A stretch of DNA of 62,498 nt, the filler included, from Stramenopiles sp. TOSAG23-2 (lineage: Eukaryota), in the NCBI GenBank assembly GCA_900128395.1. It is 8 parts of 8 records of this genome, joined end to end, with 100 filler letters (N's around TTAATTAATTAA, not from the genome) between each part and the next. Parts side by side here need not be neighbours in the genome. Positions count along the whole stretch, not along the records: positions 61,021 to 62,498 come from LT652824.1; 7 more parts are not named here. One strand, given 5' to 3'. This document shows positions 11,480-62,498 of this stretch, piece by piece. The position numbers were made by a program, and so were the translations under genes. Position 1 is the stretch's first letter. The number at the start of each line of letters is the position of its first letter. A model generated the notes under the pieces. That model saw nothing but the letters and a program-made list of their open reading frames with translations, did no database searches and was not told the origin of the DNA.

Positions 11480-11579
11480 NNNNNNNNNNNNNNNNNNNNN
11501 NNNNNNNNNNNNNNNNNNNNNNNTTAATTAATTAANNNNNNNNNNNNNNNNNNNNNNNNNNNNNNNNNNNNNNNNNNNN
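11480..11579. other. Artificial contig linker (N-run + TTAATTAATTAA + N-run)
   Basis: Six-frame stop spacer; the same linker occurs at 23058-23157, 34631-34730, 46203-46302, 57763-57862, 59342-59441 and 60921-61020. Confidence 0.98.
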
Positions 11580-12202: not shown

Positions 12203-14983
12203 TTAAATTCTACTCGGGGGAAACAATACTTTAAAAACGAAATTGCCACAAATTGCAAGTACAGAAAACATAAATATAATGACTACGATCTTCGATTTCA
12301 TCGGTATTTTCCTCAATTTTTGGCGTTCATTTTTAGCTGCTTTAATCCCAGCTGAATCAATACTATGTCCAGTAGTTCCATCTCCAATACTAATCCCAAT
12401 TGCAGCTATTTTAAATTTTTTTGGCACTTGTAACGTCGTTGGTCCATCATTGAAACGCTCCCCTGCTTTCATATTCAATGGACCAACGACTTTTTCTTTA
12501 TTCACAATAACATGATGTCTAGCTTTTAAAAATGCGGGATGCATGAAAAATTTTGCTGTTGGCAAATCAAATGGCAATGGGCGTTTTGCAGTTGGCGAGA
12601 CGGCAAATGCATAATCTGGAGAACAGATCAATAAACGTCTTTGTTTCATTATATTACTGCCGCGACCATGCATCATCATACTATCAACTGTGCGAATTCC
12701 TTCAGGTTGGCGAATTTCAGCTAACGACAACGTATCGAAAGGACGAGTGAACCAACTGGTTAAATATCGTTTCCACATGTACGATACAAATGGCAATATT
12801 GTAACAGCAGCTGCTTGGCCAAAACCTTCTTTTAAGCCAAATAATCCAATAAATGTACATTGATACATTATCAATCCATAAATGACAGCATCGACAATGT
12901 TCAACCACATAATTCCACCACTTTCGTATTTTGGTTCCCAGACATACATTGACATGTATCGAACGACACCCCATCCAAATATAAAAAATATCAACGAAAA
13001 TGGCAAAATTAACGGTGCGATAGATGAAAATACAAATGTAATGACAAATACTAATAATGCTGAACTATATGTTCGTGGAATACCTTGAGCAGGTGGAGTT
13101 GGTTTCAAGGCCATACGTCGTAACCGCTCGTTCCCTTTTGCTCGTTTCACTGCAATTAATTGTTTCACCACCGTTCCTATTTGCAATAATTGAGATGGAT
13201 AAAATGCAAATGCTAATAGCATAACGTAACTAACATAGAAAAAATATAAATTGGGTAAACTGGAAGCCAATAATCCTGGTATTTCTTTCGGTTGCGTAAT
13301 CATAGTTTGCACTGTTTCTACAAGTGCGCCACTTAAAGTCGACACTAGTAAAACATCTTTTACTTGAAATGCAAGGAAACGTAAGCTAACTGCTTTATCA
13401 AGTTGTGAAAACGTCAAGACGCCACCAAATTTAACTATTTTCTCAATCAATACTGGCAAGACGTACATTAATGCTGCTAAAATGATGGTAGGCAAAATAC
13501 CTGATAAAAACGCTCGTTCCGTATCGTCTAATTTAAATCCAACATATGCTTCTAATTTCTCTAATTTAGTCAATGCTTGCACCGCTGCTACTGGAATCGA
13601 CCAAAATGTTACCAAGGAAAACGATCCAGCAGTTTGTAATAATGAACGAAATGGTATAATGCTTAATTGTTTAACCAATGGCTTTTGCTTTACGTTTTCC
13701 CAGAATATATCACGTGGCTCCGGTGCTGACGAAACTATAAATGTATGCGGATCCTTGTTTAAAAACAATTGTTTTGCTGTATTTGCAGCTGCTGAATCTT
13801 GAAAGGTAACAAATCCAATTCCTCGTACTACTGGTGGATAATCGTTTTTCTCTATTTCTCGTTGTACTTTTCTATTCATTTTTTTCAATGCTTTTTCATA
13901 ATATTCAATGGAATCCACTGTTGTCCCTATTAAACCTCCTGGTAATTTTGCTGCAATATTACCAACTTTTGCACCAACTTTTAACATTGGATTTTCATGT
14001 GATTTTGTTTTTTTATTATTGTTGTTATTATTTTTATTATTATTATTATTATTAGCTTTCGCACTCACACTTTTTTTTTCCCTTCCTTCATCAATATCTT
14101 CATAGATATCATCATCATCATCATCATCAATATTGTCATCATCACTGTTCTCTTCATTTTTATCACTTAAAACACGATGTTTTGGTCGTACAAATTTAAA
14201 ATGAAATGATACATATGCAGCTTCTAAATTTTCAGCAATTTTTTCTCTTTTACTTAATAGTTCAGGTAATTTCAATGGATCACGTGCGACACATGCACTA
14301 TCAACGACACCACCTGGAAATAAAAATTCAAAATACTCTTTCAACGCTTCATCTGTTCTATATTCTTCTGGTATATTTTCAATCATAATCGTCCTTCCAT
14401 GAACTCCAATATCTCTTGATGCATTTCTCTCTAATGCCTTTAAATATCGATGTCTAGAATTAACAAAACTTTTATAATGAGTATATAAAAGGAAATATGT
14501 TAAAAAAGAACAGAGATATACGGAAAGTGCGAAAAACCATAAATAGATATTTTCATCCTTTGTAACTTCAATAATACTCCATTTTCCAAACGCATACATT
14601 AAACATGGTATATTAAAAAGTGCAACAAGACCAAATAATTGCATCCCTAAATCAAATATACGGGATAAAGCAAGTGCATCGATTCCAGCTTTTAAAAAAA
14701 TATCTTCATCTGTTGTAGTTAAAATCATTGTAATCCAACCACAAAATCCAGGAGGAGGGTCACTTAAATGGTTATTACCAGTCACACGATGTGTCCATCG
14801 TGGGGCATATACATGCGAAAATTTAAATCTTAAATAACTAAATAAAGTCAATACTATAATAGCTATTACTACATTTGTTTGCATTGATGCTGAAAATGCA
14901 TTAAACGACGCTTCGGTAAGAACAACACCACCATTATTATTATTATTATTGTCTCCAAAAGAAGTTGCATTATTAATAGACAT
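12203..14983 (-). CDS. OSCA/TMEM63/CSC1 mechanosensitive calcium-permeable channel, copy 1
   Basis: VYAPR, AGIDAL, RTIMIENIP, GFVTF, APEPRDIFWEN, IAPLILPF, YESGG motifs; about 11 TM segments; intronless. Confidence 0.95.
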   Translation of the reverse strand: MSINNATSFGDNNNNNNGGVVLTEASFNAFSASMQTNVVIAIIVLTLFSYLRFKFSHVYAPRWTHRVTGNNHLSDPPPGFCGWITMILTTTDEDIFLKAGIDALALSRIFDLGMQLFGLVALFNIPCLMYAFGKWSIIEVTKDENIYLWFFALSVYLCSFLTYFLLYTHYKSFVNSRHRYLKALERNASRDIGVHGRTIMIENIPEEYRTDEALKEYFEFLFPGGVVDSACVARDPLKLPELLSKREKIAENLEAAYVSFHFKFVRPKHRVLSDKNEENSDDDNIDDDDDDDIYEDIDEGREKKSVSAKANNNNNNKNNNNNNKKTKSHENPMLKVGAKVGNIAAKLPGGLIGTTVDSIEYYEKALKKMNRKVQREIEKNDYPPVVRGIGFVTFQDSAAANTAKQLFLNKDPHTFIVSSAPEPRDIFWENVKQKPLVKQLSIIPFRSLLQTAGSFSLVTFWSIPVAAVQALTKLEKLEAYVGFKLDDTERAFLSGILPTIILAALMYVLPVLIEKIVKFGGVLTFSQLDKAVSLRFLAFQVKDVLLVSTLSGALVETVQTMITQPKEIPGLLASSLPNLYFFYVSYVMLLAFAFYPSQLLQIGTVVKQLIAVKRAKGNERLRRMALKPTPPAQGIPRTYSSALLVFVITFVFSSIAPLILPFSLIFFIFGWGVVRYMSMYVWEPKYESGGIMWLNIVDAVIYGLIMYQCTFIGLFGLKEGFGQAAAVTILPFVSYMWKRYLTSWFTRPFDTLSLAEIRQPEGIRTVDSMMMHGRGSNIMKQRRLLICSPDYAFAVSPTAKRPLPFDLPTAKFFMHPAFLKARHHVIVNKEKVVGPLNMKAGERFNDGPTTLQVPKKFKIAAIGISIGDGTTGHSIDSAGIKAAKNERQKLRKIPMKSKIVVIIFMFSVLAICGNFVFKVLFPPSRI

Positions 14984-16826: not shown

Positions 16827-19610
16827 TTAAATTCTACTCGGGGGAAACAATACTTTAAAAACGAAATTGCCACAAATTGCAAGTACAGAAAACATAAATA
16901 TAATGACTACGATCTTCGATTTCATCGGTATTTTCCTCAATTTTTGGCGTTCATTTTTAGCTGCTTTAATCCCAGCTGAATCAATACTATGTCCAGTAGT
17001 TCCATCTCCAATACTAATCCCAATTGCAGCTATTTTAAATTTTTTTGGCACTTGTAACGTCGTTGGTCCATCATTGAAACGCTCCCCTGCTTTCATATTC
17101 AATGGACCAACGACTTTTTCTTTATTCACAATAACATGATGTCTAGCTTTTAAAAATGCGGGATGCATGAAAAATTTTGCTGTTGGCAAATCAAATGGCA
17201 ATGGGCGTTTTGCAGTTGGCGAGACGGCAAATGCATAATCTGGAGAACAGATCAATAAACGTCTTTGTTTCATTATATTACTGCCGCGACCATGCATCAT
17301 CATACTATCAACTGTGCGAATTCCTTCAGGTTGGCGAATTTCAGCTAACGACAACGTATCGAAAGGACGAGTGAACCAACTGGTTAAATATCGTTTCCAC
17401 ATGTACGATACAAATGGCAATATTGTAACAGCAGCTGCTTGGCCAAAACCTTCTTTTAAGCCAAATAATCCAATAAATGTACATTGATACATGATCAATC
17501 CATAAATGACAGCATCGACAATGTTCAACCACATAATTCCACCACTTTCGTATTTTGGTTCCCAGACATACATTGACATATATCGAACGACACCCCATCC
17601 AAATATAAAAAATATCAACGAAAATGGCAAAATTAACGGTGCGATAGATGAAAATACAAATGTAATGACAAATACTAATAATGCTGAACTATATGTTCGT
17701 GGAATACCTTGAGCAGGTGGAGTTGGTTTCAAGGCCATACGTCGTAACCGCTCGTTCCCTTTTGCTCGTTTCACTGCAATTAATTGTTTCACCACCGTTC
17801 CTATTTGCAATAATTGAGATGGATAAAATGCAAATGCTAATAGCATAACATAACTAACATAGAAAAAATATAAATTGGGTAAACTGGAAGCCAATAATCC
17901 TGGTATTTCTTTCGGTTGCGTAATCATAGTTTGCACTGTTTCTACAAGTGCGCCACTTAAAGTCGACACTAGTAAAACATCTTTTACTTGAAATGCAAGG
18001 AAACGTAAGCTAACTGCTTTATCAAGTTGTGAAAACGTCAAGACGCCACCAAATTTAACTATTTTCTCAATCAATACTGGCAAGACGTACATTAATGCTG
18101 CTAAAATGATGGTAGGCAAAATACCTGATAAAAACGCTCGTTCCGTATCGTCTAATTTAAATCCAACATATGCTTCTAATTTCTCTAATTTAGTCAATGC
18201 TTGCACCGCTGCTACTGGAATCGACCAAAATGTTACCAAGGAAAACGATCCAGCAGTTTGTAATAATGAACGAAATGGTATAATGCTTAATTGTTTAACC
18301 AATGGCTTTTGCTTTACGTTTTCCCAGAATATATCACGTGGCTCCGGTGCTGACGAAACTATAAATGTATGCGGATCCTTGTTTAAAAACAATTGTTTTG
18401 CTGTATTTGCAGCTGCTGAATCTTGAAAGGTAACAAATCCAATTCCTCGTACTACTGGTGGATAATCGTTTTTTTCTATTTCTCGTTGTACTTTTCTATT
18501 CATTTTTTTCAATGCTTTTTCATAATATTCAATGGAATCCACTGTTGTCCCTATTAAACCTCCTGGTAATTTTGCTGCAATATTACCAACTTTTGCACCA
18601 ACTTTTAACATTGGATTTTCATGTGATTTTGTTTTTTTATTATTGTTGTTATTATTTTTATTATTATTATTATTATTAGCTTTCGCACTCACACTTTTTT
18701 TTTCCCTTCCTTCATCAATATCTTCATAGATATCATCATCATCATCATCATCAATATTGTCATCATCACTGTTCTCTTCATTTTTATCACTTAAAACACG
18801 ATGTTTTGGTCGTACAAATTTAAAATGAAATGATACATATGCAGCTTCTAAATTTTCAGCAATTTTTTCTCTTTTACTTAATAGTTCAGGTAATTTCAAT
18901 GGATCACGTGCGACACATGCACTATCAACGACACCTCCTGGAAATAAAAATTCAAAATACTCTTTCAACGCTTCATCTGTTCTATATTCTTCTGGTATAT
19001 TTTCAATCATAATCGTCCTTCCATGAACTCCAATATCTCTTGATGCATTTCTCTCTAATGCCTTTAAATATCGATGTCTAGAATTAACAAAACTTTTATA
19101 ATGAGTATATAAAAGGAAATATGTTAAAAAAGAACAGAGATATACGGAAAGTGCGAAAAACCATAAATAGATATTTTCATCCTTTGTAACTTCAATAATA
19201 CTCCATTTTCCAAACGCATACATTAAACATGGTATATTAAAAAGTGCAACAAGGCCAAATAATTGCATCCCTAAATCAAATATACGGGATAAAGCAAGTG
19301 CATCGATTCCAGCTTTTAAAAAAATATCTTCATCTGTTGTAGTTAAAATCATTGTAATCCAACCACAAAATCCAGGAGGAGGGTCACTTAAATGGTTATT
19401 ACCAGTCACACGATGTGTCCATCGTGGGGCATATACATGCGCAAATTTAAATCTTAAATAACTAAATAAAGTCAATACTATAATAGCTATTACTACATTT
19501 GTTTGCATTGATGCTGAAAATGCATTAAACGACGCTTCGGTAAGAACAACACCACCATTATTATTATTATTATTATTGTCTCCAAAAGAAGTTGCATTAT
19601 TATTAGACAT
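16827..19610 (-). CDS. OSCA/TMEM63/CSC1 channel, copy 2
   Basis: Protein differs from copy 1 only by I3N, one extra Asn and one S/A change. Confidence 0.95.
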   Translation of the reverse strand: MSNNNATSFGDNNNNNNNGGVVLTEASFNAFSASMQTNVVIAIIVLTLFSYLRFKFAHVYAPRWTHRVTGNNHLSDPPPGFCGWITMILTTTDEDIFLKAGIDALALSRIFDLGMQLFGLVALFNIPCLMYAFGKWSIIEVTKDENIYLWFFALSVYLCSFLTYFLLYTHYKSFVNSRHRYLKALERNASRDIGVHGRTIMIENIPEEYRTDEALKEYFEFLFPGGVVDSACVARDPLKLPELLSKREKIAENLEAAYVSFHFKFVRPKHRVLSDKNEENSDDDNIDDDDDDDIYEDIDEGREKKSVSAKANNNNNNKNNNNNNKKTKSHENPMLKVGAKVGNIAAKLPGGLIGTTVDSIEYYEKALKKMNRKVQREIEKNDYPPVVRGIGFVTFQDSAAANTAKQLFLNKDPHTFIVSSAPEPRDIFWENVKQKPLVKQLSIIPFRSLLQTAGSFSLVTFWSIPVAAVQALTKLEKLEAYVGFKLDDTERAFLSGILPTIILAALMYVLPVLIEKIVKFGGVLTFSQLDKAVSLRFLAFQVKDVLLVSTLSGALVETVQTMITQPKEIPGLLASSLPNLYFFYVSYVMLLAFAFYPSQLLQIGTVVKQLIAVKRAKGNERLRRMALKPTPPAQGIPRTYSSALLVFVITFVFSSIAPLILPFSLIFFIFGWGVVRYMSMYVWEPKYESGGIMWLNIVDAVIYGLIMYQCTFIGLFGLKEGFGQAAAVTILPFVSYMWKRYLTSWFTRPFDTLSLAEIRQPEGIRTVDSMMMHGRGSNIMKQRRLLICSPDYAFAVSPTAKRPLPFDLPTAKFFMHPAFLKARHHVIVNKEKVVGPLNMKAGERFNDGPTTLQVPKKFKIAAIGISIGDGTTGHSIDSAGIKAAKNERQKLRKIPMKSKIVVIIFMFSVLAICGNFVFKVLFPPSRI

Positions 19611-22847: not shown

Positions 22848-23258
22848 TGTCGTATATACACACTATGGTATGATATTAATACACTGACTTCTGGTATATT
22901 TATAATTTTTACGCATATGCAAGTATAATGCAGAAGTTAATCTTTCTTTTTTTTTTAAACAAAAAATAAATAAATAAATATAAAAACAAATTACTTTCTG
23001 TCACACTTTACAATGTTCATATATGTGATTTATTCAACATATTTTTCATCTCAATTCNNNNNNNNNNNNNNNNNNNNNNNNNNNNNNNNNNNNNNNNNNN
23101 NTTAATTAATTAANNNNNNNNNNNNNNNNNNNNNNNNNNNNNNNNNNNNNNNNNNNNATACACTCCACGAAAGTACTGAACATGAGGGAAAAAAGAACAC
23201 TGTAGTAGTTCCAAAGGGAGGCAAGCAAGGAAAGAAAGGAAAGAAAGCCAATAAAATA

Positions 23259-25901
23259 ATGCCAGCGGCACCGAAAGTAAATTCTCTTGAATTGAAATAC
23301 GAACAGAAAATACCAAATTACTCTCGTGGTAATAGACGTAATGTCACGACAGTGGTTCCAACTAGGATAGGAAATGTGATTAGAATCAATCTTGCAGAAA
23401 ATGATGGCCATAGGCTGCCTGCATCATGGTGTTTTTCACATAAAAAGTTACACCAACACAGTAAATTGCGACGAACAATGTCATGGTGGTATACTCTGCA
23501 GTTTTTATTGCAAGTGTTTGTAGTCATTATAACACTAAGTATGCCATACATAACGGTACCTTCAAGTGTTGGCGAAGCCAGAGCTAATGTTGATTCGCAA
23601 CGTAGATTTTTGTCTACTGCCACAAATGATACAAGCACCAGTAGCAACTCATATCAAAACAATGCGTATTACAATAAAGCGAGAGAAGCGTTAGAAAACT
23701 CAACATTTCAATCTTTACTTCTATCAAAAAGTATTTTTTGCGCTATGTGCCTTTTATTAACTGTTGCACGTAGTCGAAAGAGGAGAGGTTTGTTACAAAT
23801 TTGCACAAAGTATTGCCATTGGTTAATTGAGCTAATATTTATATTTATCACGTTAGGTTCCATATACGGCTTTTATATGCTTAAAAACGATGCGATACCA
23901 CGTTATATTGCTATAACTTGCGAATGTGTTACAATGATCACCTCCTTGATAGCTAAATGTCACGAGCGTAGACTGCACAAACGTGCTGCTAGAGTCAGAC
24001 CAATTGGCATGAAAGCTAAAACAGCTGTACAACCGGTCACAAGTGATAGACGCGGTATGTCAGTTAAAAAGAAAAACAAAATTGTTTCAAGGAAAAAGAA
24101 AGGTAGAAAAGGTTTATTTTCCTTTTCTTCTGACAGCGAGGAACGTAGCAAAACGAAGGTTGTACCGCAGAGCACTGTCGAAGGAAGACACGTATTTGAA
24201 GAGCATGTATTTGACGAAGAGGATTTACTCTCGCACATACAAAACAAAGCAAACGTTGAATGTATCCTGCTTTTGAAGCCCGCCGAGCGTCTTGAGAAGG
24301 AACTTGAGATGATGAGGCACGAAGAAGAACGCTTTAATATGGCAATGGAGGATAGACTTGCATTGAAGATACGGGATGAACCAAAACGCGTATTAGAATT
24401 AGAAAATATGCGTCGAGAAGAAGCACGACAGCAAATGTTTGAAACTGAAATGGCGCAGATTGCAGTAGAAGAGGAACAAAATCGAAGAAGAGAAATTAAA
24501 GAAATGCGAATGGTCGAGGCACAAGAACGTATGTTTATAGAAGACAAACGTTCAAGATTAGAGAATGACATATTTGAACAATGGAGTGCTGTTCAAAAAG
24601 ACAAGGAAATTATGGAATTGGATCATATGAGGCAAGAGGAGGAACAACGTAGAACATACCTCGAAGAGGTTCGTCATTTATGGTTGTTAGATTGCGAAGC
24701 ACATTTAGATGACCTAGCAAAAGAGCAACAATTAGCTAATTTATACTCTATGAGACGAGAAGAAGACCGGCAGCGTATGTTTGAAGTTGAGCGCGAGCAA
24801 CGTATTGTAGCAAATTTAATAGTGATGCACGAAGAGCTACCAAATATGAGAAGAGAAGAAGCTCGCCAGCGCATGATACAAGCGGAGGATTATCGAAGAA
24901 AATATTTAGAAGATCATCAATTACAAGCATCTCAAATGTCTGCAATCAGGGTATTGAAAGAAAAATTAGACTCGGAGGATGTTGAGCTGATACGAGAGGA
25001 ATTAGAAAAAGTGCATAAAGTCTTCAAAGTTGTTGGGGCATTGGAAGTGCTTGTCAAAAAATGCGAAGAATTTGTCCAAAATGAAGTTCAGAATATTAAG
25101 GATGAACTAATTGAAGCAATGAACGACTTTGAAAATCCAAATCATTTAGATCGTTTAGAAGTAGCAATTTCAAAAGCATGGCATTTATTGCATCCGGCGG
25201 AGGAAAAACTATTAAACAAAGCATCTGCTATCGAGAAAGAATTAGAACATTTAAGAGATATAACGAAACAAGTGGAAAATTTAAATCAGACAACAATCGC
25301 GGAAATCAAATCGTTCAAAAAACCAAACGAGCAAATAGTTTCCGTTATTGTCTCTCTATTTATATTGCTTGGACACCAACCTGAAGAATTGGACACATGG
25401 AGTAAATGTACTGCTGCCCTAGGCAAAACAGGAGAAAACAATGTTAAGCGAAGAATAATGAAGCATAAAATCACAGATGTATCGAAGAAGCAAATCAAAA
25501 TGGTTAAAAAATTGATTAAATCAGTCGAAATAACAAAAATTCAAGGTATTTCGTCAACAGCAGCCACTTTGCTTGGATGGGTGATGGGAGTTCTTGCTGA
25601 GTATAAATTATTAGGGCCTAAGTCACGAGCAGCAAGTCGTGCAAGTCTTGTCCCTAATTCGGGAAAGAAGAAGAAAAAGAAGAAAAAAAAGAAAGGAACG
25701 ACCTTAACAACTGTTGATGATAATGATGGTGATGGAGTTGGGAAATCATCTGTATCACGAGCCGCATTAAAAACAGACGATCTCAACGACGATAATTTTG
25801 ATGCAAGATCGACAAAAAGTAGTGGTAGAAAAACACCAACTGGCAAAAAAAAGAAGAAGAAGAAAAAGCGAGGTTCAAGCAAGAAGAGTAAAAAAAAATA
25901 A
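23259..25901 (+). CDS. Membrane protein (about 4 TM) with repetitive coiled coil and a dynein-stalk/microtubule-binding-like domain
   Basis: Four hydrophobic segments in aa ~75-235; six LxxMRxEExR-type repeats; IAEIKSFKKPNEQIVSVIVSLFILLG...W...LLGWVMGVL resembles the dynein MTBD; Lys-rich tail. Confidence 0.7.
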   Translation: MPAAPKVNSLELKYEQKIPNYSRGNRRNVTTVVPTRIGNVIRINLAENDGHRLPASWCFSHKKLHQHSKLRRTMSWWYTLQFLLQVFVVIITLSMPYITVPSSVGEARANVDSQRRFLSTATNDTSTSSNSYQNNAYYNKAREALENSTFQSLLLSKSIFCAMCLLLTVARSRKRRGLLQICTKYCHWLIELIFIFITLGSIYGFYMLKNDAIPRYIAITCECVTMITSLIAKCHERRLHKRAARVRPIGMKAKTAVQPVTSDRRGMSVKKKNKIVSRKKKGRKGLFSFSSDSEERSKTKVVPQSTVEGRHVFEEHVFDEEDLLSHIQNKANVECILLLKPAERLEKELEMMRHEEERFNMAMEDRLALKIRDEPKRVLELENMRREEARQQMFETEMAQIAVEEEQNRRREIKEMRMVEAQERMFIEDKRSRLENDIFEQWSAVQKDKEIMELDHMRQEEEQRRTYLEEVRHLWLLDCEAHLDDLAKEQQLANLYSMRREEDRQRMFEVEREQRIVANLIVMHEELPNMRREEARQRMIQAEDYRRKYLEDHQLQASQMSAIRVLKEKLDSEDVELIREELEKVHKVFKVVGALEVLVKKCEEFVQNEVQNIKDELIEAMNDFENPNHLDRLEVAISKAWHLLHPAEEKLLNKASAIEKELEHLRDITKQVENLNQTTIAEIKSFKKPNEQIVSVIVSLFILLGHQPEELDTWSKCTAALGKTGENNVKRRIMKHKITDVSKKQIKMVKKLIKSVEITKIQGISSTAATLLGWVMGVLAEYKLLGPKSRAASRASLVPNSGKKKKKKKKKKGTTLTTVDDNDGDGVGKSSVSRAALKTDDLNDDNFDARSTKSSGRKTPTGKKKKKKKKRGSSKKSKKK

Positions 25902-34623: not shown

Positions 34624-35037
34624 AAAAAAANNNNNNNNNNNNNNNNNNNNNNNNNNNNNNNNNNNNNNNNNNNNTTAATTAATTAANNNNNNNNNNNNNN
34701 NNNNNNNNNNNNNNNNNNNNNNNNNNNNNNACAGTTACAGGAGATGTCTTGCTTTTTAGAAACTATACCAAGAGGGAATAAATATGTATATATGTACATA
34801 CTCATATATATATATATATATTAATTTTATACTTCGTATGATACGTATTATATTATTTAAAATATGAAGATTTAATAAAAAATAATATTCGTGTATCTAT
34901 CATAGTATTTGAATATATATTACGTACATATATATATAATTTATACATATCATATATCAGCTATTATGAGTAGTTGATACTATCTATTTACCTTCATTGG
35001 TATTCTCGATACTGGCCAACTCTACAATAATAGTTGA

Positions 35038-40718: not shown

Positions 40719-43700
40719 ATGGCTTCTGCTGAAAAGAAATATAACGTTGGATTAAACCTGCCTGGAAATGCTGAAGGTAACGAAACAAAAAACAATGGTG
40801 AGAGTGTCGAAATTCTTGATATAAACTTAGCAGCCTTTATACCTTTATCGGTCAGGCGTATTGTTTTAAATAATAATAAAATACCAGATGCGCCATTTAA
40901 AGATCTTGTAGAAGGAGTGGTGCTTCTGGCTGATATTTCTGGTTTTACAGCATTAGGAGAAAAATTAATGGAAGAATTTGGTGACTCGACCGGTGCAGAA
41001 AAATTTGCTGAAGCAATATCCTCAGCTATTTCAGACTTGGTTAACGTTTTGCACAGGTATGAAGGCGAATGTGTCAAAATAGCTGGAGATTGTTTAATAT
41101 GTTGCTTTGTATCTAACGAAGAGGAAGATGGGGGTGACGAAACCGCATTTCGTAATGCAAAATTGTGTGCAATTGACTTGCTCAACACTATTAAAAAATC
41201 AAACGAATCATTAGATCTTCATGGGGGAATTGCAACAGGGACAATACAACGGTTGCATGTAAAAGAATTACGTGGATCCAGTCCAAGAAGTAATTCGGCT
41301 CGACAGCGTATGAAGGCTAGGGATGAGGCAATCATGACTAAAGCTGAATTGGAACGCTCAAAACAACGCTGGTATTTGATTGCTGGACGGCCAATTAAAA
41401 TTGCTGGAGAATTGTTGGAGAAAGCTCCACCTGGTGTTATCAAAATGTTTGGTGGTATGAATATTTCAAGAGAAACTCTACCGGAGCAAATTGGTATAGA
41501 CGATTTAAAAAAAAGCCAACCAGAAAAATTGCAGCGTGAAGCATCTAGGCGTATAACTATGGTTGACAAGTTTGTCACTGAATTAAGTAACTGTCCCAAA
41601 AAGGCAAAAGCATATTTGCCTCCAATTGTCGCAGCAAAGAACGCAAATAACGTTGGAAAATTTACAAATGAAAAAAGAAGAGTTGTTATTGCTTTCGTAA
41701 GTGTACCGGGGCTTGAAAAAAAGGCTGTTAAAAGTCAAGGAGTCGAAGCTGCGCATTTAAATGATGTCTATTCTGCCCTAAAATCAGTCTTAAACAAATT
41801 TGAAGGTTTAATGCGTGATTTTTTGTTTGAAGACAAAGGTTGTACGATGATATGCTGCTTTGGAATTGATCAAATTTCAGAAGTTGATGCATTGCGAGCT
41901 GTATTGTTTGCACTTGAAGCAACTGCGGCATGTGAGACATTAACAGAGCCATGTAAGATAGGTATTTCGATGGGTCAATGTTTTACTGGCGTATGTGGTC
42001 ATGTAACAAGATGCGATTTTGTTGTAATGGGACCAGAGGTAAATATGGCGGCACGTTTAATGGGTAAAGCTGAAACGGGGAAAATTCTTGTTAGTGAGAG
42101 GGTATATAATGCCACACAAAATTATGTTGGTTATGATATGACAAAGCCAATTGAGTTGAAAGGTAGAGAAGGAACATCACGTGCTCTTCGTCCTTTTGGA
42201 AAAAAAGCTGGTGCGGTAAGGCATAAAGCTCAAGATCAGATGAGCAGTGGTGTATTTGTAGGACGAGAAAGTGAAATGAATGCTTTAAGAGCTGCTTTGA
42301 ATAATATGCTAGAAAACAAAAGCGGTAGTGCATTTATTTTGGAAGGCCTTGCTGGAATGGGTAAAAGTGCTATTGTTTGGAATTTTCAAGCTGAAGCTCT
42401 AGAGAAAAACGTCAGGTTTTTGATGGGCACCGGATCTGCTATTGAAAAGCAGACGCCTTACTTTGCCTTTGCACAAATTTTGTGTGCTGCAGCTAATTTA
42501 TCCTCAAGCCCAAGTTATGGTGAAGTATTGGCTTTGAAACACACGTACCAGTTGGATGAAGATGATGTAAACTCACTTGGAATCATTTTGCCATCATTAG
42601 CAAAACGAGATGAAGCGGGAAATCAGCTGAAGCAAGGGCGCCTAGAAGGACGAGCTGCACAAGTATGTCTAAAAATATTTAATTCAATGGAAAATTCTGT
42701 CTTTGTTTTCGAGGATGCACATTGGATAGATTCCCAATCATGGATAATGCTTCAAATGATTTTGCCGCAATTGTCTAGCGGGTCAATGGTGATGATTGTA
42801 ACTCGACCACCAAACATGGCATCGCAAATGAAAGGCGGCGGACAACATGGAACAGAAGGTTTTCGAAATAGTGAAGAGAAAGTGGAAGAGGAGTTTTTAG
42901 AGGATGATGACAGAGTCAAATTCTCTAGAATATTAGCCGGGTTGAAGGCACAAGCAGATATTACTTTGCTATCCCTAGGAGTCATGGATGAGGCTGGTAT
43001 GCATGAATTAACTTCAAAGATATTAGAGGTTCCAATAGAAAAGATAGGGAAACCGTTGTTAAAATTGTTAAATGCAAAGGCCGGTGGTATTCCAATGTAT
43101 ATATCTAGTATGTCTGCTTGGTTAGTAGAGCGTGGTATGGTAAATAAAGACGATGATGGACGTGTGCAATTCAATGGAGATATTAACAACATTCAGTTTC
43201 CTGCATCTATTATGGATACTGTACTTGAGCGGGTGGATAGTCTTGATGAATATTCAAAAGCTTTGATAAAGGTATGCGCTTGCTTTGGATTTGAGTTTTG
43301 CCAAGATTATCTGGATAGTATAATTTGTAAGTTTATTGGTTCAGAGGATCCCCAAGTGTATCAAAAGGCATTGTCAACACTAGCTGAACGTGGGCTTGTT
43401 GTACCTGTTACTGGTGAATCTGTGGCTCAAATGATGAAATTTACGCATCAAATTATTTGTGAAAGTGCATATAATTTGATGCTGGATAGCCAGCGACGTG
43501 AGGTGCACTTGGCTATTGCAAATGAATACGAAAATGCCGGCTCAAAATTTGAGATGGAAATACTTGCGTATCATTGGTTACGAAGTGGAGAAGTTGATAG
43601 AGGTTGCATTATGCTACAAGCTGCCGCAGAGAAAGCGTAAGTAGATTTCATTCCTCTAAAGTGAAAGTAAAAATCCTTTCTCTAACACACCACTCTTTTA

Positions 43701-45762
43701 TAATTGCACTCCACAGGATAGATATTGGAGCATACAAAGAAGCTGTTAATCAATTGAGTTTAGCAATAGCACATGGAAAAGAGCATAAAAATAAACCGTT
43801 ATGGTTAAGTTTATTGGGATACACAAAATATTTATATGGCAATTGGGACGATGCTGTGACATATGGAGTATTGGCAATGAAAGCCTTAGATGATAAAGAG
43901 ATTATTCCAGCCATAAGATCAAAGCTTACCGTTGATGCACTGAAACGAACATATGCAGAATATGAAGATTTACCACCTAGCAAACCTGACAATATAGATG
44001 ATATTGATCGTGCAAAAATGTATGTATTTTTTCTTCTCGGATACTGTTTTCAAAGTCGTACAGTCAATAAAAAGGCTTTGATGCAAGAATATGGCCTACA
44101 ACCATCGGATTTCAAGCGACTTGCACAATATTATCATCAAAAGTGCATGATACTTGCATATTACCAGGGGAATGATAATATATGGTGTCTTCAGCATGGC
44201 ACAGCGCCAAACAGTGGCACATATGAAGTAGATGAAGTGCGTCAATTTTATCGGCGTGTGCAAAATATTGTTAAGTCAGAAAGGGTCAAACCAGAGCTAC
44301 GAGTAGATTGTAAGTATGCTTTTTGATACATGCCTTTTCATAAATAATTACTAACAATATGTATTTATAATGCACAGGCCTTATGTTTAGCTTTATGTGG
44401 TATACACCACACTCTCCGGAGTATTGTAAAACTGGTTTGCAACAGATGCTTGAGATTACTGATCTTATTGATGGAAATTTAAAACATGCTAGTAAACTCT
44501 CCTTTCATTTTATGATTGGTAGCGGGGTGTTATTTTCTATAGGTGACTATAAAATGGCAAAACATTTTGGGGATCGGGCTTGCAAAGTTAAATGTGACAC
44601 TGAGGCAGCAGAGGATACAAAAGCAACGGTATTTGAGTATGCAAGATTTACCGAGACGTATATAGCATCTATTACAGGGGATAGACAAAGGGTGAAAGAA
44701 GGATACACTAAACATATGGAAATGGGGAAAAGTTTTGCAAGTAGAAGTCCAAGTAATCGTTGGGGAAGATTTACTACATTAGCTATGGGTGTACAGTACA
44801 TCGATGAAGGAGAATACGAGCTGGCAGAAAAATTGATTGCGTCACATTTTCCACATGGACTGATCTATTTTATATACAATGTAAACACCCATTTATCGTT
44901 TTTTATAGAATGGCCATGCGAAGTGCTGATCAGATTGTACGAATTCCACACAAAGCAAGGAAAGGACACGAAAGAAGCTGTTGTAGTGATGAAACAAGTA
45001 AGAGCACGCATGGAAGATTTAGCAAAGACGCGTCCAGGGATGTATCGGATGTCTGGAGTGGCTTATGGAGCAAGGCTTACATTAATTTTAAAAGATAGGC
45101 CATTTGCTGATGTATTAAGCAAATTAAAAGAAGCATTAGACTATGCCGCTGAGTTAGCAGTAATGCCACAAGACACAATAACTCTTAAACAAGTCGTTGC
45201 TCTTTTTGAAAATAGCCAAGAAGGCTTAGAAATCGCAAAGGAAGAGTTTGAGAAGTTTTGTCCAGGATGTCCACACGTATCGCGAACTCAAAGATTGATA
45301 GATGAATTAAAAAGTGGTATAAGAGAGCCAGTTGATTTATCGTTTGTACCAGAAATTGTCGAGGAAAATAATAATACTGTTGACGATAGCGATCCACTAA
45401 CGGCAATAGAAAAGAAAATTGTTGAAGCAAAAGCTAGATTTACAGCTGCAACAGATAAAGATGAAAAGAAGAGTGCACGTGCTACCATGAAAGCCTTAAT
45501 TAAAGAGAAAAAGGCTCTGGAAGAAAAAATTGCTGCAGAGAAAAATGCAATTGATATTGATGCAAAGATTGCAGAATTAGAAACGCAGTTAGCTGAGGCA
45601 AATGCAAAGGCAATGCAAGCTATGGAGGAAGATGATGAAGATGCAGAAGAAATCGCATATGAAGAAGCGGAAAGATTAATGGAAGAATTAGAAGCTTTAA
45701 AAGCTATGAGTATACCTAAGAAGAAATTGTTGGAAGCTCAACAAAAAGACAAAGCAAATTAA
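40719..45762 (+). CDS. Soluble adenylyl cyclase (ADCY10-like: two cyclase domains + STAND NTPase + TPR-like), 3 exons, ~1631 aa
   Basis: Exons 40719-43636, 43717-44309 and 44378-45762 joined in frame by GTAAGT..CAG introns containing CTAAC; LADISGFTAL, AGD, EDKG, VNMAARLM, P-loop GLAGMGKS, Walker B FEDAHWID. Confidence 0.92.
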
Positions 45763-47179
45763 AAATAAATTTTGCATTTTCCAACACACTAAAATATATC
45801 ATATAAAAGATTTTACTGAATGTTTTTTTTTTAGAAAATGATAGCACATACTTCGTTTTTATACGAACGTCGTACTATTTCCAGAAAGTTATATTTGATG
45901 ATTATTTTTATATATACTAATATTCCTAACACGGTGAGTTTTGGTCAAATAGGAATATTAGTATACAAACATGCATACTATGATCCATAATAATCTCATG
46001 TGTTTAACCACTTTGTGATGATACTCATGTCAATAAATATTGGATTTATTGTTACTAAAAAAGAATTCGTTTGGATTCATTTTGATACAATAAATAATAT
46101 TAAAACAAGAATCGTTTTAGCAGTTTTTTTCACGGATATATGTAAAACTTTTTGAAATAAATGGAAAGGAAAGCAATTTAGCTATATTTACACGATATAT
46201 ATNNNNNNNNNNNNNNNNNNNNNNNNNNNNNNNNNNNNNNNNNNNNTTAATTAATTAANNNNNNNNNNNNNNNNNNNNNNNNNNNNNNNNNNNNNNNNNN
46301 NNCATTCTTTCCTTTGCTCGATTGTTTGTTTGTTTATTTTGTTTCTTATTGACGTCTGAGCGTTTGTTTGTTTATTGTGTCAGAGTGTGTCAGAGTGTTT
46401 GTTGATGTGGTATTCATCCATATTGATGTTTTTGAGTGTGTTTTGTAGATGTGTATACGTATAATATATATAGTGTGTGAATGAAGGCGGTATAGAGATA
46501 TATAGATACTAAAAGGAATCTTATATATATATATATATGTAGTTTACATGATGTATTTATGTATGTCGATGTTATTATGATATCTCAAACAAATTTATAA
46601 ACATATATATATCTATTCTCGTATTGTTGTGGATGTTGGTTGTGCAGTCTATCTACCTTTCTACGTCTCTTACAACTATCATATATATATATATGATGTG
46701 GTGAGTAGATAGATGTAAAAAGACGGTTTATTCATGCATGGAATTTCCCTCCCTTCGCCCTTTGCGATCAATGGTCAGTGTAGGTGTATGTATATATATA
46801 TATATGTGTGTGTGTTTACAATATTATAAGATATAATTAGTTGAACATATCATTTTGAGTGTTTTGTATTGGTTTTACATTTAATATTTATATATATATA
46901 TATATATATTATATCCTCAAAAGTATATTAGATATATTATTATTTTTTATATTTTAAATTTCACCATTTTTTGAATTTTTATTTTTTTTTTCAATTTGTG
47001 GTCAAAAATTAATAGAGATTGAACGACGTATTTAGATTTTAAACGGTGAGATATATATATATACACACACACTATCGAAAGTCATATTATACTACGTTAA
47101 TTTCATTTTTTATCGTTGTTATATATTATACATACATTGAATCATATATTGTATATATACATATATATATATATACATA

Positions 47180-57762: not shown

Positions 57763-57862
57763 NNNNNNNNNNNNNNNNNNNNNNNNNNNNNNNNNNNNNN
57801 NNNNNNTTAATTAATTAANNNNNNNNNNNNNNNNNNNNNNNNNNNNNNNNNNNNNNNNNNNN

Positions 57863-59341: not shown

Positions 59342-59441
59342 NNNNNNNNNNNNNNNNNNNNNNNNNNNNNNNNNNNNNNNNNNNNTTAATTAATTAANNN
59401 NNNNNNNNNNNNNNNNNNNNNNNNNNNNNNNNNNNNNNNNN

Positions 59442-60920
59442 TTCTTTTCAACTTATGAAATTCAAATTATAACTGGTGATAAGCGTGGTGCTTCGACTTC
59501 TTCGAACGTATTTGTATCTTTGTATGATAATAATAATAATGAATACAAAGTACCTGTGGATCCAACTACTACTTTCGAGCGCAATGAAATGACCACACTA
59601 TTATTAGAAAACTCTGACATCAAAAGTTTAGATGAAATTTGTAAGATACGTGTAGGTCATGATGGTGAGAATGAAGTTGGTTCAGGTTGGTTTTTGGACC
59701 GTGTAATAATAAGTAGCGAAGATAGTAATAAAAATTATAATAAAGATGAAAATAGTAAAACTCTTCATTATGAGAGTGATAATAATAATAATTATAACAA
59801 CAATAATGATAGCATTGAGTTTTTTTTACATGGATGGATTGGTAAGAGTGATTCTGGCGGTATCGATGGACCGTTAATACAAGATATAGATTTATTTGAT
59901 GACAACGCCCATGTTGAAGAAGTTTTTGATATAAACGCCTTACCAGCACAATCACCATATAAATTAGATGTTGGTGGATTTTGCATTCCACATCCTGAAA
60001 AAGTGAAACAAGGTGAAAAAGCTGTATGTGCAAATACATATGGTTATGGTGGTGAAGATGCTTATTTTACATTAGGCAAGGGTGGTAACTTTATTGGCAT
60101 CGCAGATGGAATCTATGAGTGGCGGGATCGAGGTATAGATGCTGGTTTATTTTCAAGAGCGTTGATGACTGGTGCTTCGGAATATGCTACTGATGCAATT
60201 ATGAAGGATAAATTTGTCACGTCAAAAGATTTATTTCGTGCTGCTGCTGCACATGCAAGAAATTCAGGCTTGCAAGGCAGCTCTACTCTCTGTATTTTTG
60301 GATTAATACCTTATGAAGGGTTTCATGAAATGAAGGATGATATGCATTTAAATTACAAAATGAGGATTACGAAACTCGGGAAACGAAAAATTTACCCGAC
60401 ACATTTTGACGGTAATGAAACTATAAATGATATATTATCGAGTATGTTAAACAATGTAAATGGTTCGAAAGCCATGGTAGGGCAAGTGACAAACTTAGGA
60501 GATTCTGGCATTTTAGTTGGACGCCCATCCACTGGAGAAATTTTGTTTCGTACACCTCAGCAAGAGCATGATTTCGGTTTTCCATATCAACTTGGACACG
60601 AAGGTATAGCAGATGGTGTTGATGATGCAGAGGTGTATTTAGTTGGTAATATCATTGAAGGTGATGTCATCATCGCAGGAAGTGATGGTTTATTTGATAA
60701 TTTATCCGATGTTGAAATTTTAAGTCATGCATCTAATTTTCCTGAAAAATCACCACAGCAAATCTCTATGCAACTCATAAATGCGGCTTTTGAAAAGTCA
60801 ATAGATAAAAAGGCTGATACTCCTTACTCAAACGCAGCAACGGAAGAGTTTAATATAATTTACCGTGGTGGTAAAAAAGATGATATTGCGTGTGTTGTTA
60901 GTCGTGTGTCTCAAGTTAAA
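59442..60920 (+). CDS. PLAT/LH2 domain + PTC7-type PP2C phosphatase; truncated at both contig ends
   Basis: Open from 59442: YEIQIITGDKRGASTSSNVFVSL..FERN..IRVGHD..GWFLDRV (PLAT); GEDAYF, IADG, NLGDSG, GSDGLFDN, GGKKDDI (PTC7-type). Confidence 0.88.
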
Positions 60921-61108
60921 NNNNNNNNNNNNNNNNNNNNNNNNNNNNNNNNNNNNNNNNNNNNTTAATTAATTAANNNNNNNNNNNNNNNNNNNNNNNN
61001 NNNNNNNNNNNNNNNNNNNNTGTAACATGAGAAATGAATAAATACATGGTGTTAGTAAAATGCTTCACAGCTATTATTGGATGTTTGTGTATATATGGAT
61101 ATACCTAC

Positions 61109-62491
61109 ATCCTCTGCCACCTCTTGCAGGCTATTATTTTAATATAGAAATTATTGTTGTTTTTGAAAAAAAACACAGGTTAGATATCATAATTTGCAAA
61201 AGAATAATAGAATGTGTTGGCTGTTTATCATTACGTACTGGGCCACGGCCTCGACCTCGACCTCTACTACCACCTCTTGCTGTGTAAAATGATTTCGAAT
61301 AAGAATCATCAATGGCGCAAAAAAAATGTATAAATGTATTAATAATATGTTAGATTTCTAATCGTCTATATAAATAAAATCGTATGTTTAAATGCATTTG
61401 CTACTTGATTGATTTATCGTTTTATTTCAACAATCCATAATTACTTACGTGGTGGACCTCTTGGCGCTGTTGTAAATGATTCGTTTCAATATAAAATGTT
61501 AATGTTAGTTAAAACTTTGCATAATGAAATTTCAAAGATCGTAAAGAAGCTACTACCGATATCAAAGAACATTAAGATCTACGTACGTCCTCCTCTTGGT
61601 GGCGGTCCCCTAGGCGCTGTTGTAAATGGTTTAACGTAAAACAAGATAATGTTAGTTAGATTTTTTTGTTTTCATACTCATTTTCAAAAGCTTTAATCAG
61701 ATGAATTTTCTACGTACGTCCTCCTCTTGGCGGCGGACCTCTAGGTGCTGTTGTAAATGGTTTATTTCAATGTAAAACAAGATAATGTTAGTTATGGTTT
61801 GGTTGTTTTTTTAGTTTCATACTCATTTTCAAAAGCTATAATCAGATGAATTTTCTACATACGTCCTCCTCTAGGTGCTGAATGTTAAATGGTAATGTTA
61901 GTTATCTTTCATAATCAAATTTCAAAGATCGTAAAGAATCTACGTACGTCCTCCTCTCGGTGGCGGCCCCCTTGGTGCTGTAAATGGTTTGTTTCAATGT
62001 GAAGATAGTGTTAGTAATGTTTCGTAACATTTTTCTAAAGTTTTGTTGATTATTAAGATCTACATACGTCCTCCTCTCGCTATGATATTATCATCAATAA
62101 TAAATGTATGATGTGTATTTATGTTAGTGTTGTGGAATCGTCCATATGTGGAATGTGAAAACGTATGTACGTGTATGTGTGTGTGTGTATATATATACGC
62201 ATGCCGTATTCCAGCTGCAATAATTATTTCATCCATTGCATGAACATTACTTACGTGGTGCCCCACGACCTGCTGCTTTTCATTTGTTAGTAAATTCATG
62301 TTGTGTTAGTAAATTCATATTGTGTTATTAATTCAATTTGTATGATTTTATGTAGTATGTATATAAAGAAATATATATGTATAAGATCCTTGGTACCATG
62401 TATATATATATATATATCAAAGCAAATGCCTATCCATAATAACAATGTTCCAGTTCTACTAATTAATTTAACGTACGTGCTCGTCCAGGTG
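61109..62491 (-). CDS. Internal part of a micro-exon gene encoding Pro/Arg/Gly (PPRGG/RGG) repeats; 10 exons
   Basis: Exons 62477-62491, 62255-62272, 62068-62079, 61948-61977, 61863-61877, 61718-61747, 61587-61616, 61449-61466, 61239-61279, 61109-61130; each flanked by YAG and GTANGT; the spliced frame has no stop. Confidence 0.85.
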
Positions 62492-62498
62492 CTGTTAA

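Follow-up and report, generated by a model that had tools for sequence, protein, structure and literature searches.

Micro-exons of 12 to 41 nucleotides encoding a proline-, arginine-, and glycine-rich repeat in an intron-poor marine stramenopile

Can a stretch of DNA whose longest candidate exon measures 41 nucleotides (nt) nevertheless encode a protein domain? The question is raised by a small piece of the genome of Stramenopiles sp. TOSAG23-2 (GCA_900128395.1; record LT652824.1), which forms positions 61021-62498 of a composite stretch of 62,498 bases, referred to here as the window. An earlier note, made from the sequence alone, had described ten short GC-rich islands on the minus strand of this piece, separated by AT-rich spacers and bordered by splice-site-like motifs, and had proposed that they are micro-exons building a modular PPRGG/RGG polypeptide. 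The array occupies the whole of this last piece (1478 nt) and is cut at both ends. From the arrangement of its splice signals, from RNA contigs that join its exons, and from the pattern of substitutions within them, we conclude with high confidence that it is a real, expressed micro-exon array and that the proposed gene model is essentially right.

A regular-expression scan of the minus strand found all ten islands where they had been placed. Numbered E1 to E10, they measure 15, 18, 12, 30, 15, 30, 30, 18, 41, and 22 nt. Single exons range from 59 to 73% GC, and the pooled exons have 66.7% GC versus 26.1% for the introns, the nine complete ones of which span 70 to 204 nt with 23 to 33% GC each. 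The splice signals were also as described: CAG or TAG stands before, and GTANGT after, all ten exons, the donors being GTACGT at five exons, GTATGT at two, GTAAGT at two, and GTAGGT at one. A CTAAC branch-like motif, which had been claimed for most spacers, is present in all ten introns (nine complete and the cut tenth), and it lies 14 to 70 nt from the 3′ splice site in the nine complete ones. Eight of the ten exons (E1 to E8) are phase 1-1, and each of the first eight junctions rebuilds a proline codon, split as C/CA or C/CG, while the E9/E10 junction is in phase 0. The array extends upstream of E1, where the end of the piece cuts through one more intron (Table 1).

This arrangement is far beyond chance. 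A scan for the pattern GTANGT...CTAAC...YAG recovered nine consecutive introns on the minus strand of the 1.48-kb piece and none on its plus strand, whereas 1000 shuffled versions of the piece gave 0.36 matches on average and never more than 3. The same scan returned six matches, on both strands, in the other ~61 kb of the window. Two of these are convincing introns, which interrupt adjoining open frames of an adenylate-cyclase/AAA_16 gene. Since these two carry the same signals, the array uses the ordinary splice code of this genome, at extraordinary density: 11 introns (9 complete, 2 cut) in 1.48 kb versus 2 convincing introns in ~61 kb. The scarcity of introns in the rest of the window, together with its long unbroken open reading frames (ORFs), agrees with the earlier description of an otherwise intron-poor genome.

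Evidence that the introns are removed comes from contigs of three RNA runs (X15, X16, and X18; nine RNA contigs), which were compared with the piece along with contigs of a fourth run, X4, whose kind is unrecorded and was guessed to be DNA. Run X15 is a metatranscriptome depleted of ribosomal RNA, X18 is a polyA metatranscriptome from a different study, and X16 is oligo-dT RNA. As the gene model predicts, RNA contigs join E3 through E10 at the expected borders, one of them continuing into an eleventh exon (E11). A check for transcripts with the predicted junctions, suggested in the earlier note, was thus positive for much of the array, with introns 3 to 9 removed and the donor of intron 10 used in contigs from X15 and X18. 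The longest run of exons is found in X15 record 1 (332 nt), which contains E3-E4-E5-E6-E7-E8-E9 and the start of E10, all in order. Its four listed joints fall exactly at predicted borders, with CT..AC on the plus strand equivalent to GT..AG on the minus strand; E5 and E8 were too short for alignment, and the letters between the joints were therefore compared by eye. E8 in this contig has three differences, all synonymous and at sites that also vary in a DNA contig. From the polyA run, record 7 joins E9 to E10 and continues with 15 letters of exon outside the piece, and record 8 joins a 30-nt unit, a variant of E8, E9, and E10. All three X18 contigs consist only of exon-like units placed end to end, without intron letters.

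Altogether, six of the nine RNA contigs (X15 records 1, 3, and 4 and X18 records 7, 8, and 9) end or join exactly at predicted borders. At 61239, loose contig ends in both X15 and X18 agree with the first letters of E10. In X15 record 2 the match to E9 breaks off 8 nt inside the exon and is followed by letters that correspond to the start of E10, which we read as the E9/E10 junction in a variant with a 6-nt in-frame deletion. Partly spliced forms are also present in X15, with intron 4 out and intron 5 in (record 4), intron 7 out and intron 8 in (record 3), and intron 9 out and intron 8 in (record 2). These forms look like nascent RNA and are hard to explain by genomic variants.

When joined, the 231 nt of the ten exons are open in the proposed frame for 76 codons. 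The product is composed of P (28 residues), G (26), R (18), A (3), and S (1), with motif counts of 17 RG, 7 RGG, 10 PPR, and 4 PPPR. No folded domain was seen in the piece, nor any sign of secretion in the Pro/Arg/Gly repeat product. Retention of any one of introns 2 to 8 places an in-frame stop at the third codon, because GTAYGTAG or GTAAGTAA comes after the phase-1 junction. The substitutions show purifying selection on the reading frame. The three 30-nt exons had previously been taken to indicate selection at the protein level, and all six variable sites among E4, E6, and E7 are indeed third codon positions (hypergeometric P = 3.5e-4). Comparison of the window with the contigs extends this pattern: among 21 substitutions, 9 are exonic, and every one of these is silent in the predicted frame, including one first-position change (CGA/AGA). 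The variant of E9 in X16 likewise keeps the frame, with a 6-nt deletion at 61249 that removes one Arg-Gly unit.

The explanation of the whole that we consider likely is that the piece comes from the interior of a nuclear protein-coding gene in which a Pro/Arg/Gly low-complexity domain is encoded by a run of micro-exons. These exons are 12 to 41 nt long; the piece contains ten, and at least one further exon lies beyond either end. They supply the modules PPRGG, PPRGPPPRGG, and (RG)4. Given the shortness of the introns and the strength of their GTANGT, CTAAC, and YAG signals, splicing probably proceeds intron by intron (intron definition), in which case exon length would matter little. Neighboring introns would then be removed stepwise, a sequence of events that the partly spliced contigs fit. 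A retained intron among introns 2 to 8 would bring in its early stop, and unspliced RNA would be expected to yield no long aberrant protein. The product would be a disordered, multivalent tail, with Arg-Gly methylation sites and with Arg-flanked polyproline motifs that could be bound by GYF, WW, or OCRE-type readers. Whether this would be the tail of a ribonucleoprotein (RNP)-type protein is, in our estimate, evenly poised, and an identity with Sm B itself is doubtful. The methylation, RNA-binding, and SH3/WW/GYF-ligand roles proposed in the earlier note were suggested by composition and may be viewed as candidate functions.

Several observations weigh against this account. No contig shows the removal of intron 1 or intron 2, and the segment from E1 through intron 1 to E2 is without RNA cover. 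Intron 2, whose 3′ 81 nt are still present in X15 record 1, is the only intron seen retained beside spliced neighbors at its 3′ side. Neither X16 contig is spliced, and both are ~4% diverged; pre-mRNA or DNA from a related strain may be their source, and they are uninformative on splicing. The E3/E4 joint is also present in X4, the run guessed to be DNA, and if that run is pure DNA, then the joint exists in the genome of a relative and is no proof of splicing. More generally, RNA libraries can contain DNA, and the contigs are strandless, with rare forms dropped. Between 61239 and 61877, strain differences are denser in exons (9 in ~134 nt) than in introns (12 in ~546 nt), which may reflect gene conversion among units or contigs placed on the wrong similar copy. 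As for function, the RNP-tail and Sm B readings draw on composition and on resemblance.

Table 1. Exons and introns of the micro-exon array, in minus-strand order, and the two convincing introns elsewhere in the window
Feature	Position	Strand	Length (nt)	Phase	Module or signals	Evidence or remark
Upstream intron, 3′ end	62492..62498	-			TTAACAG	Cut by piece end; CAG acceptor directly before E1
E1	62477..62491	-	15	1-1	PGRA	Sequence; without RNA contig cover
Intron 1	62273..62476	-	204		GTACGT...2x TTACTAAC...CAG	Sequence; without RNA cover
E2	62255..62272	-	18	1-1	PGRGAP	Sequence; without RNA cover
Intron 2	62080..62254	-	175		GTAAGT...ACACTAAC...TAG; (TA)n/(CA)n microsatellite	62080-62160 kept, joined to E3, in X15 record 1
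E3	62068..62079	-	12	1-1	PRGG	Sequence; RNA joint 61977/62068
Intron 3	61978..62067	-	90		GTATGT...TTACTAAC...CAG	Removed in X15 record 1 (CT..AC on + strand); also X4 record 17
E4	61948..61977	-	30	1-1	PPRGPPPRGG	X15 record 1, 0 other letters
Intron 4	61878..61947	-	70		GTACGT...TAACTAAC...CAG	Removed in X15 records 1 and 4
E5	61863..61877	-	15	1-1	PPRGG	15 letters between E4 and E6 in X15 record 1 equal the E5 reverse complement
Intron 5	61748..61862	-	115		GTATGT...TAACTAAC...CAG	Removed in X15 record 1, kept in record 4
E6	61718..61747	-	30	1-1	PPRGPPPRGG	Sequence and RNA contig
Intron 6	61617..61717	-	101		GTACGT...CTAACTAAC...CAG	Joint 61616/61718 in X15 record 1
E7	61587..61616	-	30	1-1	PPRGPPPRGG	Sequence and RNA contig
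Intron 7	61467..61586	-	120		GTACGT...TAACTAAC...CAG	Removed in X15 records 1 and 3 and X18 record 8
E8	61449..61466	-	18	1-1	PPRGPP	18-letter variant between E7 and E9; differs at 61453, 61462, 61465
Intron 8	61280..61448	-	169		GTAAGT...AATCTAAC...CAG	Removed in X15 record 1 and X18 record 8; kept in X15 records 2 and 3
E9	61239..61279	-	41	1-0	PRGGS + four RG + P	Sequence and RNA contigs
Intron 9	61131..61238	-	108		GTACGT...TATCTAAC...TAG	E9 and E10 adjacent in X18 record 7
E10	61109..61130	-	22	0-1	PARGGRG	Sequence and X18 record 7
Intron 10	61021..61108	-	First 88		GTAGGT...TTACTAAC...	Cut by piece end
Intron elsewhere	43637-43716	+	80		GTAAGT...CTCTAAC...CAG	Between frames 40719-43640 and 43604-44326
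Intron elsewhere	44310-44377	+	68		GTAAGT...TACTAAC...CAG	Between frames 43604-44326 and 44383-45762

Two details of the array deserve mention. The last base of E10, at 61109 on the minus strand, is T in the window and appears to be C in one polyA-RNA contig (read by eye); a C at this position would give Pro, not Ser, at the E10/E11 junction, as at the eight phase-1 junctions. Separately, when read in the frame of E3, intron 2 is open throughout, and ATG codons lie close to its 5′ end (ORF 62060..62305). In the X4 variant of this intron, ~126 nt stand in place of 133 nt, a change that is not a multiple of 3, which argues that intron 2 is non-coding.

We turn to how such an array could have formed. 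Introns 3 to 7 can all be aligned with one another, and the alignment continues into the flanking exons. Seven of the 10 pairs among them have a local-alignment z above 6, the highest scores being those of introns 5 versus 6 (z = 42) and 4 versus 7 (z = 24), while among the 35 pairs involving introns 1, 2, 8, 9, or 10 only intron 2 versus intron 8 reaches z = 6.1, a weak match. From the homology of introns 3 to 7, we hold it to be very probable that the array core expanded through recent tandem duplication of intron-plus-exon units, each an intron together with a 30-nt exon. Judging from their similarity, introns 5 and 6 appear to be recent duplicates. Other exons can be related to the same unit: E5 (15 nt) looks like a 30-nt unit whose first half was lost, and the pairs E2+E3 and E8+E9 both resemble a 30-nt unit interrupted after base 18 by an intron of another kind, which starts GTAAGTAA.

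Growth by duplication could be taken one step further, to an exon-intron minisatellite that evolves fast, with relatives differing in the number and order of units and in the presence of introns, and with a tail whose length varies at the DNA level. Contigs from X4 lend support to this idea. Record 17 (depth 15.2, 61948-62277) has E2, a diverged intron 2, and E3, the last of these fused without introns to an E4-like unit and a further unit; record 16 (438 nt, depth 5.9) carries introns 6 to 8 as in the window, being colinear with 61247-61684. The different unit order in X18 record 9, the in-frame deletion variant of E9 in X16, and the close similarity of introns 5 and 6 point the same way. However, with the library type of X4 unrecorded, record 17 may be partly spliced RNA or cDNA, as it has the same form as X15 record 1, in which intron 2 is kept; either the library contains RNA or cDNA, or the contig comes from a close relative without these introns. 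Assembly by 31-letter words is also error-prone over 30-nt repeats, and there is one contig of each kind only. We therefore regard the minisatellite as unlikely. About equally unlikely is a broader version of it, in which an RNP-type tail would be kept in this form, with units that duplicate, shrink, and perhaps lose introns. Owing to the symmetry of the units, the valency of a disordered, methylatable domain could then be tuned by the population, via the number of units and the presence or absence of introns, and possibly by the cell, via skipped exons or stepwise splicing with its built-in stop codons. In this version the AT-rich introns may, in addition, break up a GC-rich coding repeat that would otherwise be unstable.

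A different source of variation was put forward in the earlier note, namely, that the symmetric exons act as cassettes skipped in varying sets, with splicing tuning the number of PPRGG/RGG modules. Since 8 of the 10 exons are phase 1-1, any subset of them could be removed in frame, and the principle is one used by schistosome micro-exon genes (MEGs), in which tandem, very small symmetric exons allow in-frame exon skipping, as outlined in PMC4350168. A polyA contig, X18 record 9, could be cited in favor of such skipping, with 30-nt units in an order absent from the window (4-like, 7-like, 4-like, next). However, this order would need a backward joint, from an E7-like to an E4-like unit, and the contig has mismatches; given the backward joint, another allele or strain is the simpler reading. 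Furthermore, the only contig spanning E3-E10, X15 record 1, includes all eight exons in order, and X18 record 8 keeps even the 18-nt E8 between a 30-nt unit and E9. No exon skipping was seen in any contig that can be ordered on the window, bearing in mind that contigs cannot show rare isoforms or count them. Strong consensus signals at every intron favor constitutive splicing. Cassette skipping is thus quite improbable in our view, and a splice-tunable valency is speculation.

Tandem duplication of intron-plus-exon units, which we prefer as the origin of the array core, also has to be weighed against repeated insertion of an introner-like mobile element into a GC-rich coding repeat. Extreme intron density and five homologous introns are what might be expected of mobile introns, but the homologous introns are adjacent and their homology enters the exons, which is the signature of tandem unit duplication, and introns 1, 2, 8, 9, and 10 are unrelated to the family of introns 3 to 7. 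When the piece was searched with blastn against the remaining 60.9 kb of the window, which represents little of the genome, the matches were confined to (TA)n/(CA)n microsatellites and included no dispersed intron copies; this absence argues against a mobile origin, which we consider highly improbable. Scarcely credible is the last alternative, that the exons are incidental to a non-coding host gene with intronic small RNAs, such as the small nucleolar RNA host genes in which short exons occur with conserved introns, or that the array is a single-cell-assembly artefact in a window that is, after all, a stitched composite of small pieces: exon changes are only synonymous, the window has no Rfam match at or above a gathering score, and the same arrangement occurs in DNA runs of several studies as well as in the 438-nt metagenome contig. 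The only Rfam match at E <= 1, to mir-297, scored 32 bits versus a gathering score of 90, on a (CA)n/(TA)n microsatellite, and was rejected.

Comparison with known systems yields three partial counterparts. The schistosome MEG comes nearest in architecture, the Sm B-type tail in protein pattern, and tandem-duplicated symmetric exons encoding disordered repeats in general principle; the locus cannot be filed under any of these families. What the 1478-nt piece shows of the coding sequence is for the most part a tandem series of very small symmetric exons (8 of 10 exons, 12-30 nt), an architecture resembling that of MEGs. Unlike in MEGs, the host is a stramenopile protist and not a flatworm, the product is a Pro/Arg/Gly repeat without sign of secretion, introns 3 to 7 are homologous, consistent with growth by unit duplication, and no skipping was seen in the contigs. 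The schistosome comparison drawn in the earlier note holds as an analogy for gene architecture alone, with neither a sequence relationship nor evidence of secretion.

In the tails of Sm N/B/B′, RG repeats occur alongside Arg-preceded polyproline motifs; these tails carry symmetric dimethylation and are bound by OCRE, GYF, and WW domains, as outlined in PMC5127646. The product of the array shares with the Sm B/B′/N tails an RG-repeat stretch and Arg-preceded polyproline motifs, a feature that is not specific to Sm B, and it differs from them in its repeat, PPRGG or PPRGPPPRGG, and in the absence of an Sm fold or other domain within the piece. The vertebrate Sm tail motif contains Met. We take the modules PGRGAP and PPRG(G) to resemble the human Sm B/B′/N tail, and we know of no report of an Sm tail encoded by micro-exons. 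Classic cases of symmetric (1-1) exons are the exon arrays of elastin, collagen, and titin-PEVK. In humans, symmetric exons that encode disorder likewise have an architecture permitting combinatorial splicing, as outlined in PMC3632108. Compared with animal arrays of symmetric (1-1) exons for disordered repeats, the exons here are far smaller (12-30 nt), and the introns are tiny with yeast-like consensus signals, in a host that is unicellular and intron-poor. The introns themselves are like those of the yeast type (GTAYGT...TACTAAC...YAG) in having strong, near-invariant 5′ splice-site and branch-site motifs within a genome of few introns. Intron-poor genomes usually show one intron per gene, unlike this stramenopile, in which eleven introns (9 complete, 2 cut) crowd into 1.48 kb of one gene.

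At the level of listed records, a literature search for micro-exon or microexon together with stramenopile returned no such array. A scan of metagenome contigs for a 19-letter motif, spanning exon end and intron start and common to five units, led to one locus and no array; this locus (L001) was rejected as a chance match in unrelated, GC-richer sequence.

The locus provides RNA-supported joining of exons as short as 12-18 nt in a few-intron unicellular eukaryote, and it shows that in genomes of this kind entire low-complexity domains will escape standard ORF-based or ab initio annotation. It is also a natural example of very uneven intron density within a genome and of how micro-exons may be handled under intron definition. 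The intron-plus-exon units, which can still be aligned, record the growth of the array and thus offer an example of disordered-repeat expansion. If it is true that unit number or intron presence differs between close relatives, the locus would represent a rare case of live intron gain or loss in a wild protist population.

The window in which the array was found is composed of eight pieces, five of ~11.5 kb and three of ~1.48 kb, delimited by seven copies of TTAATTAATTAA, each between runs of N (linkers at 11480-11579, 23058-23157, 34631-34730, 46203-46302, 57763-57862, 59342-59441, and 60921-61020). Because the window is stitched from separate pieces, the ORF at 59520-60920 has no physical link to the array piece. 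The GC content of the window is 24-39%, and its other pieces carry long unbroken eukaryotic ORFs, among them a 1515-aa DNA polymerase alpha with all four Pfam domains, a calpain, RSN1-type channels, and the adenylate cyclase/AAA_16 protein. The named best matches of the DNA polymerase alpha are all from stramenopiles (diatoms, Paraphysomonas, Nannochloropsis, Ectocarpus, and Triparma) at 51-58% identity, and unnamed metagenome proteins reach up to 75-78% identity. Of the words sampled from the stretch, 94-95% are present in three small DNA runs (two organism labels) and 20-40% in nine marine metagenome runs whose DNA nature was guessed. Runs holding small shares (X5-X14, X17, X19, and X20) bear on habitat solely through their "marine metagenome" labels. 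The host is an AT-rich, intron-poor marine stramenopile.

Two pairs of ORFs in the other pieces were noted in passing. The ORFs at 59520-60920 (+) (467 aa as read) and 23259-25901 (+) (880 aa) are both rich in Asn runs, and neither matches a Pfam family at E <= 0.001; a PLAT/PP2C-type identity guessed for the former was dropped, as it had no Pfam support at this threshold. The RSN1/PHM7-type channel ORFs at 12203-14983 (-) and 16827-19610 (-) lie in the same piece, 1.8 kb apart, and are identical at 924 of 927 positions, which reflects either a very recent tandem duplication or a duplication in the assembly.

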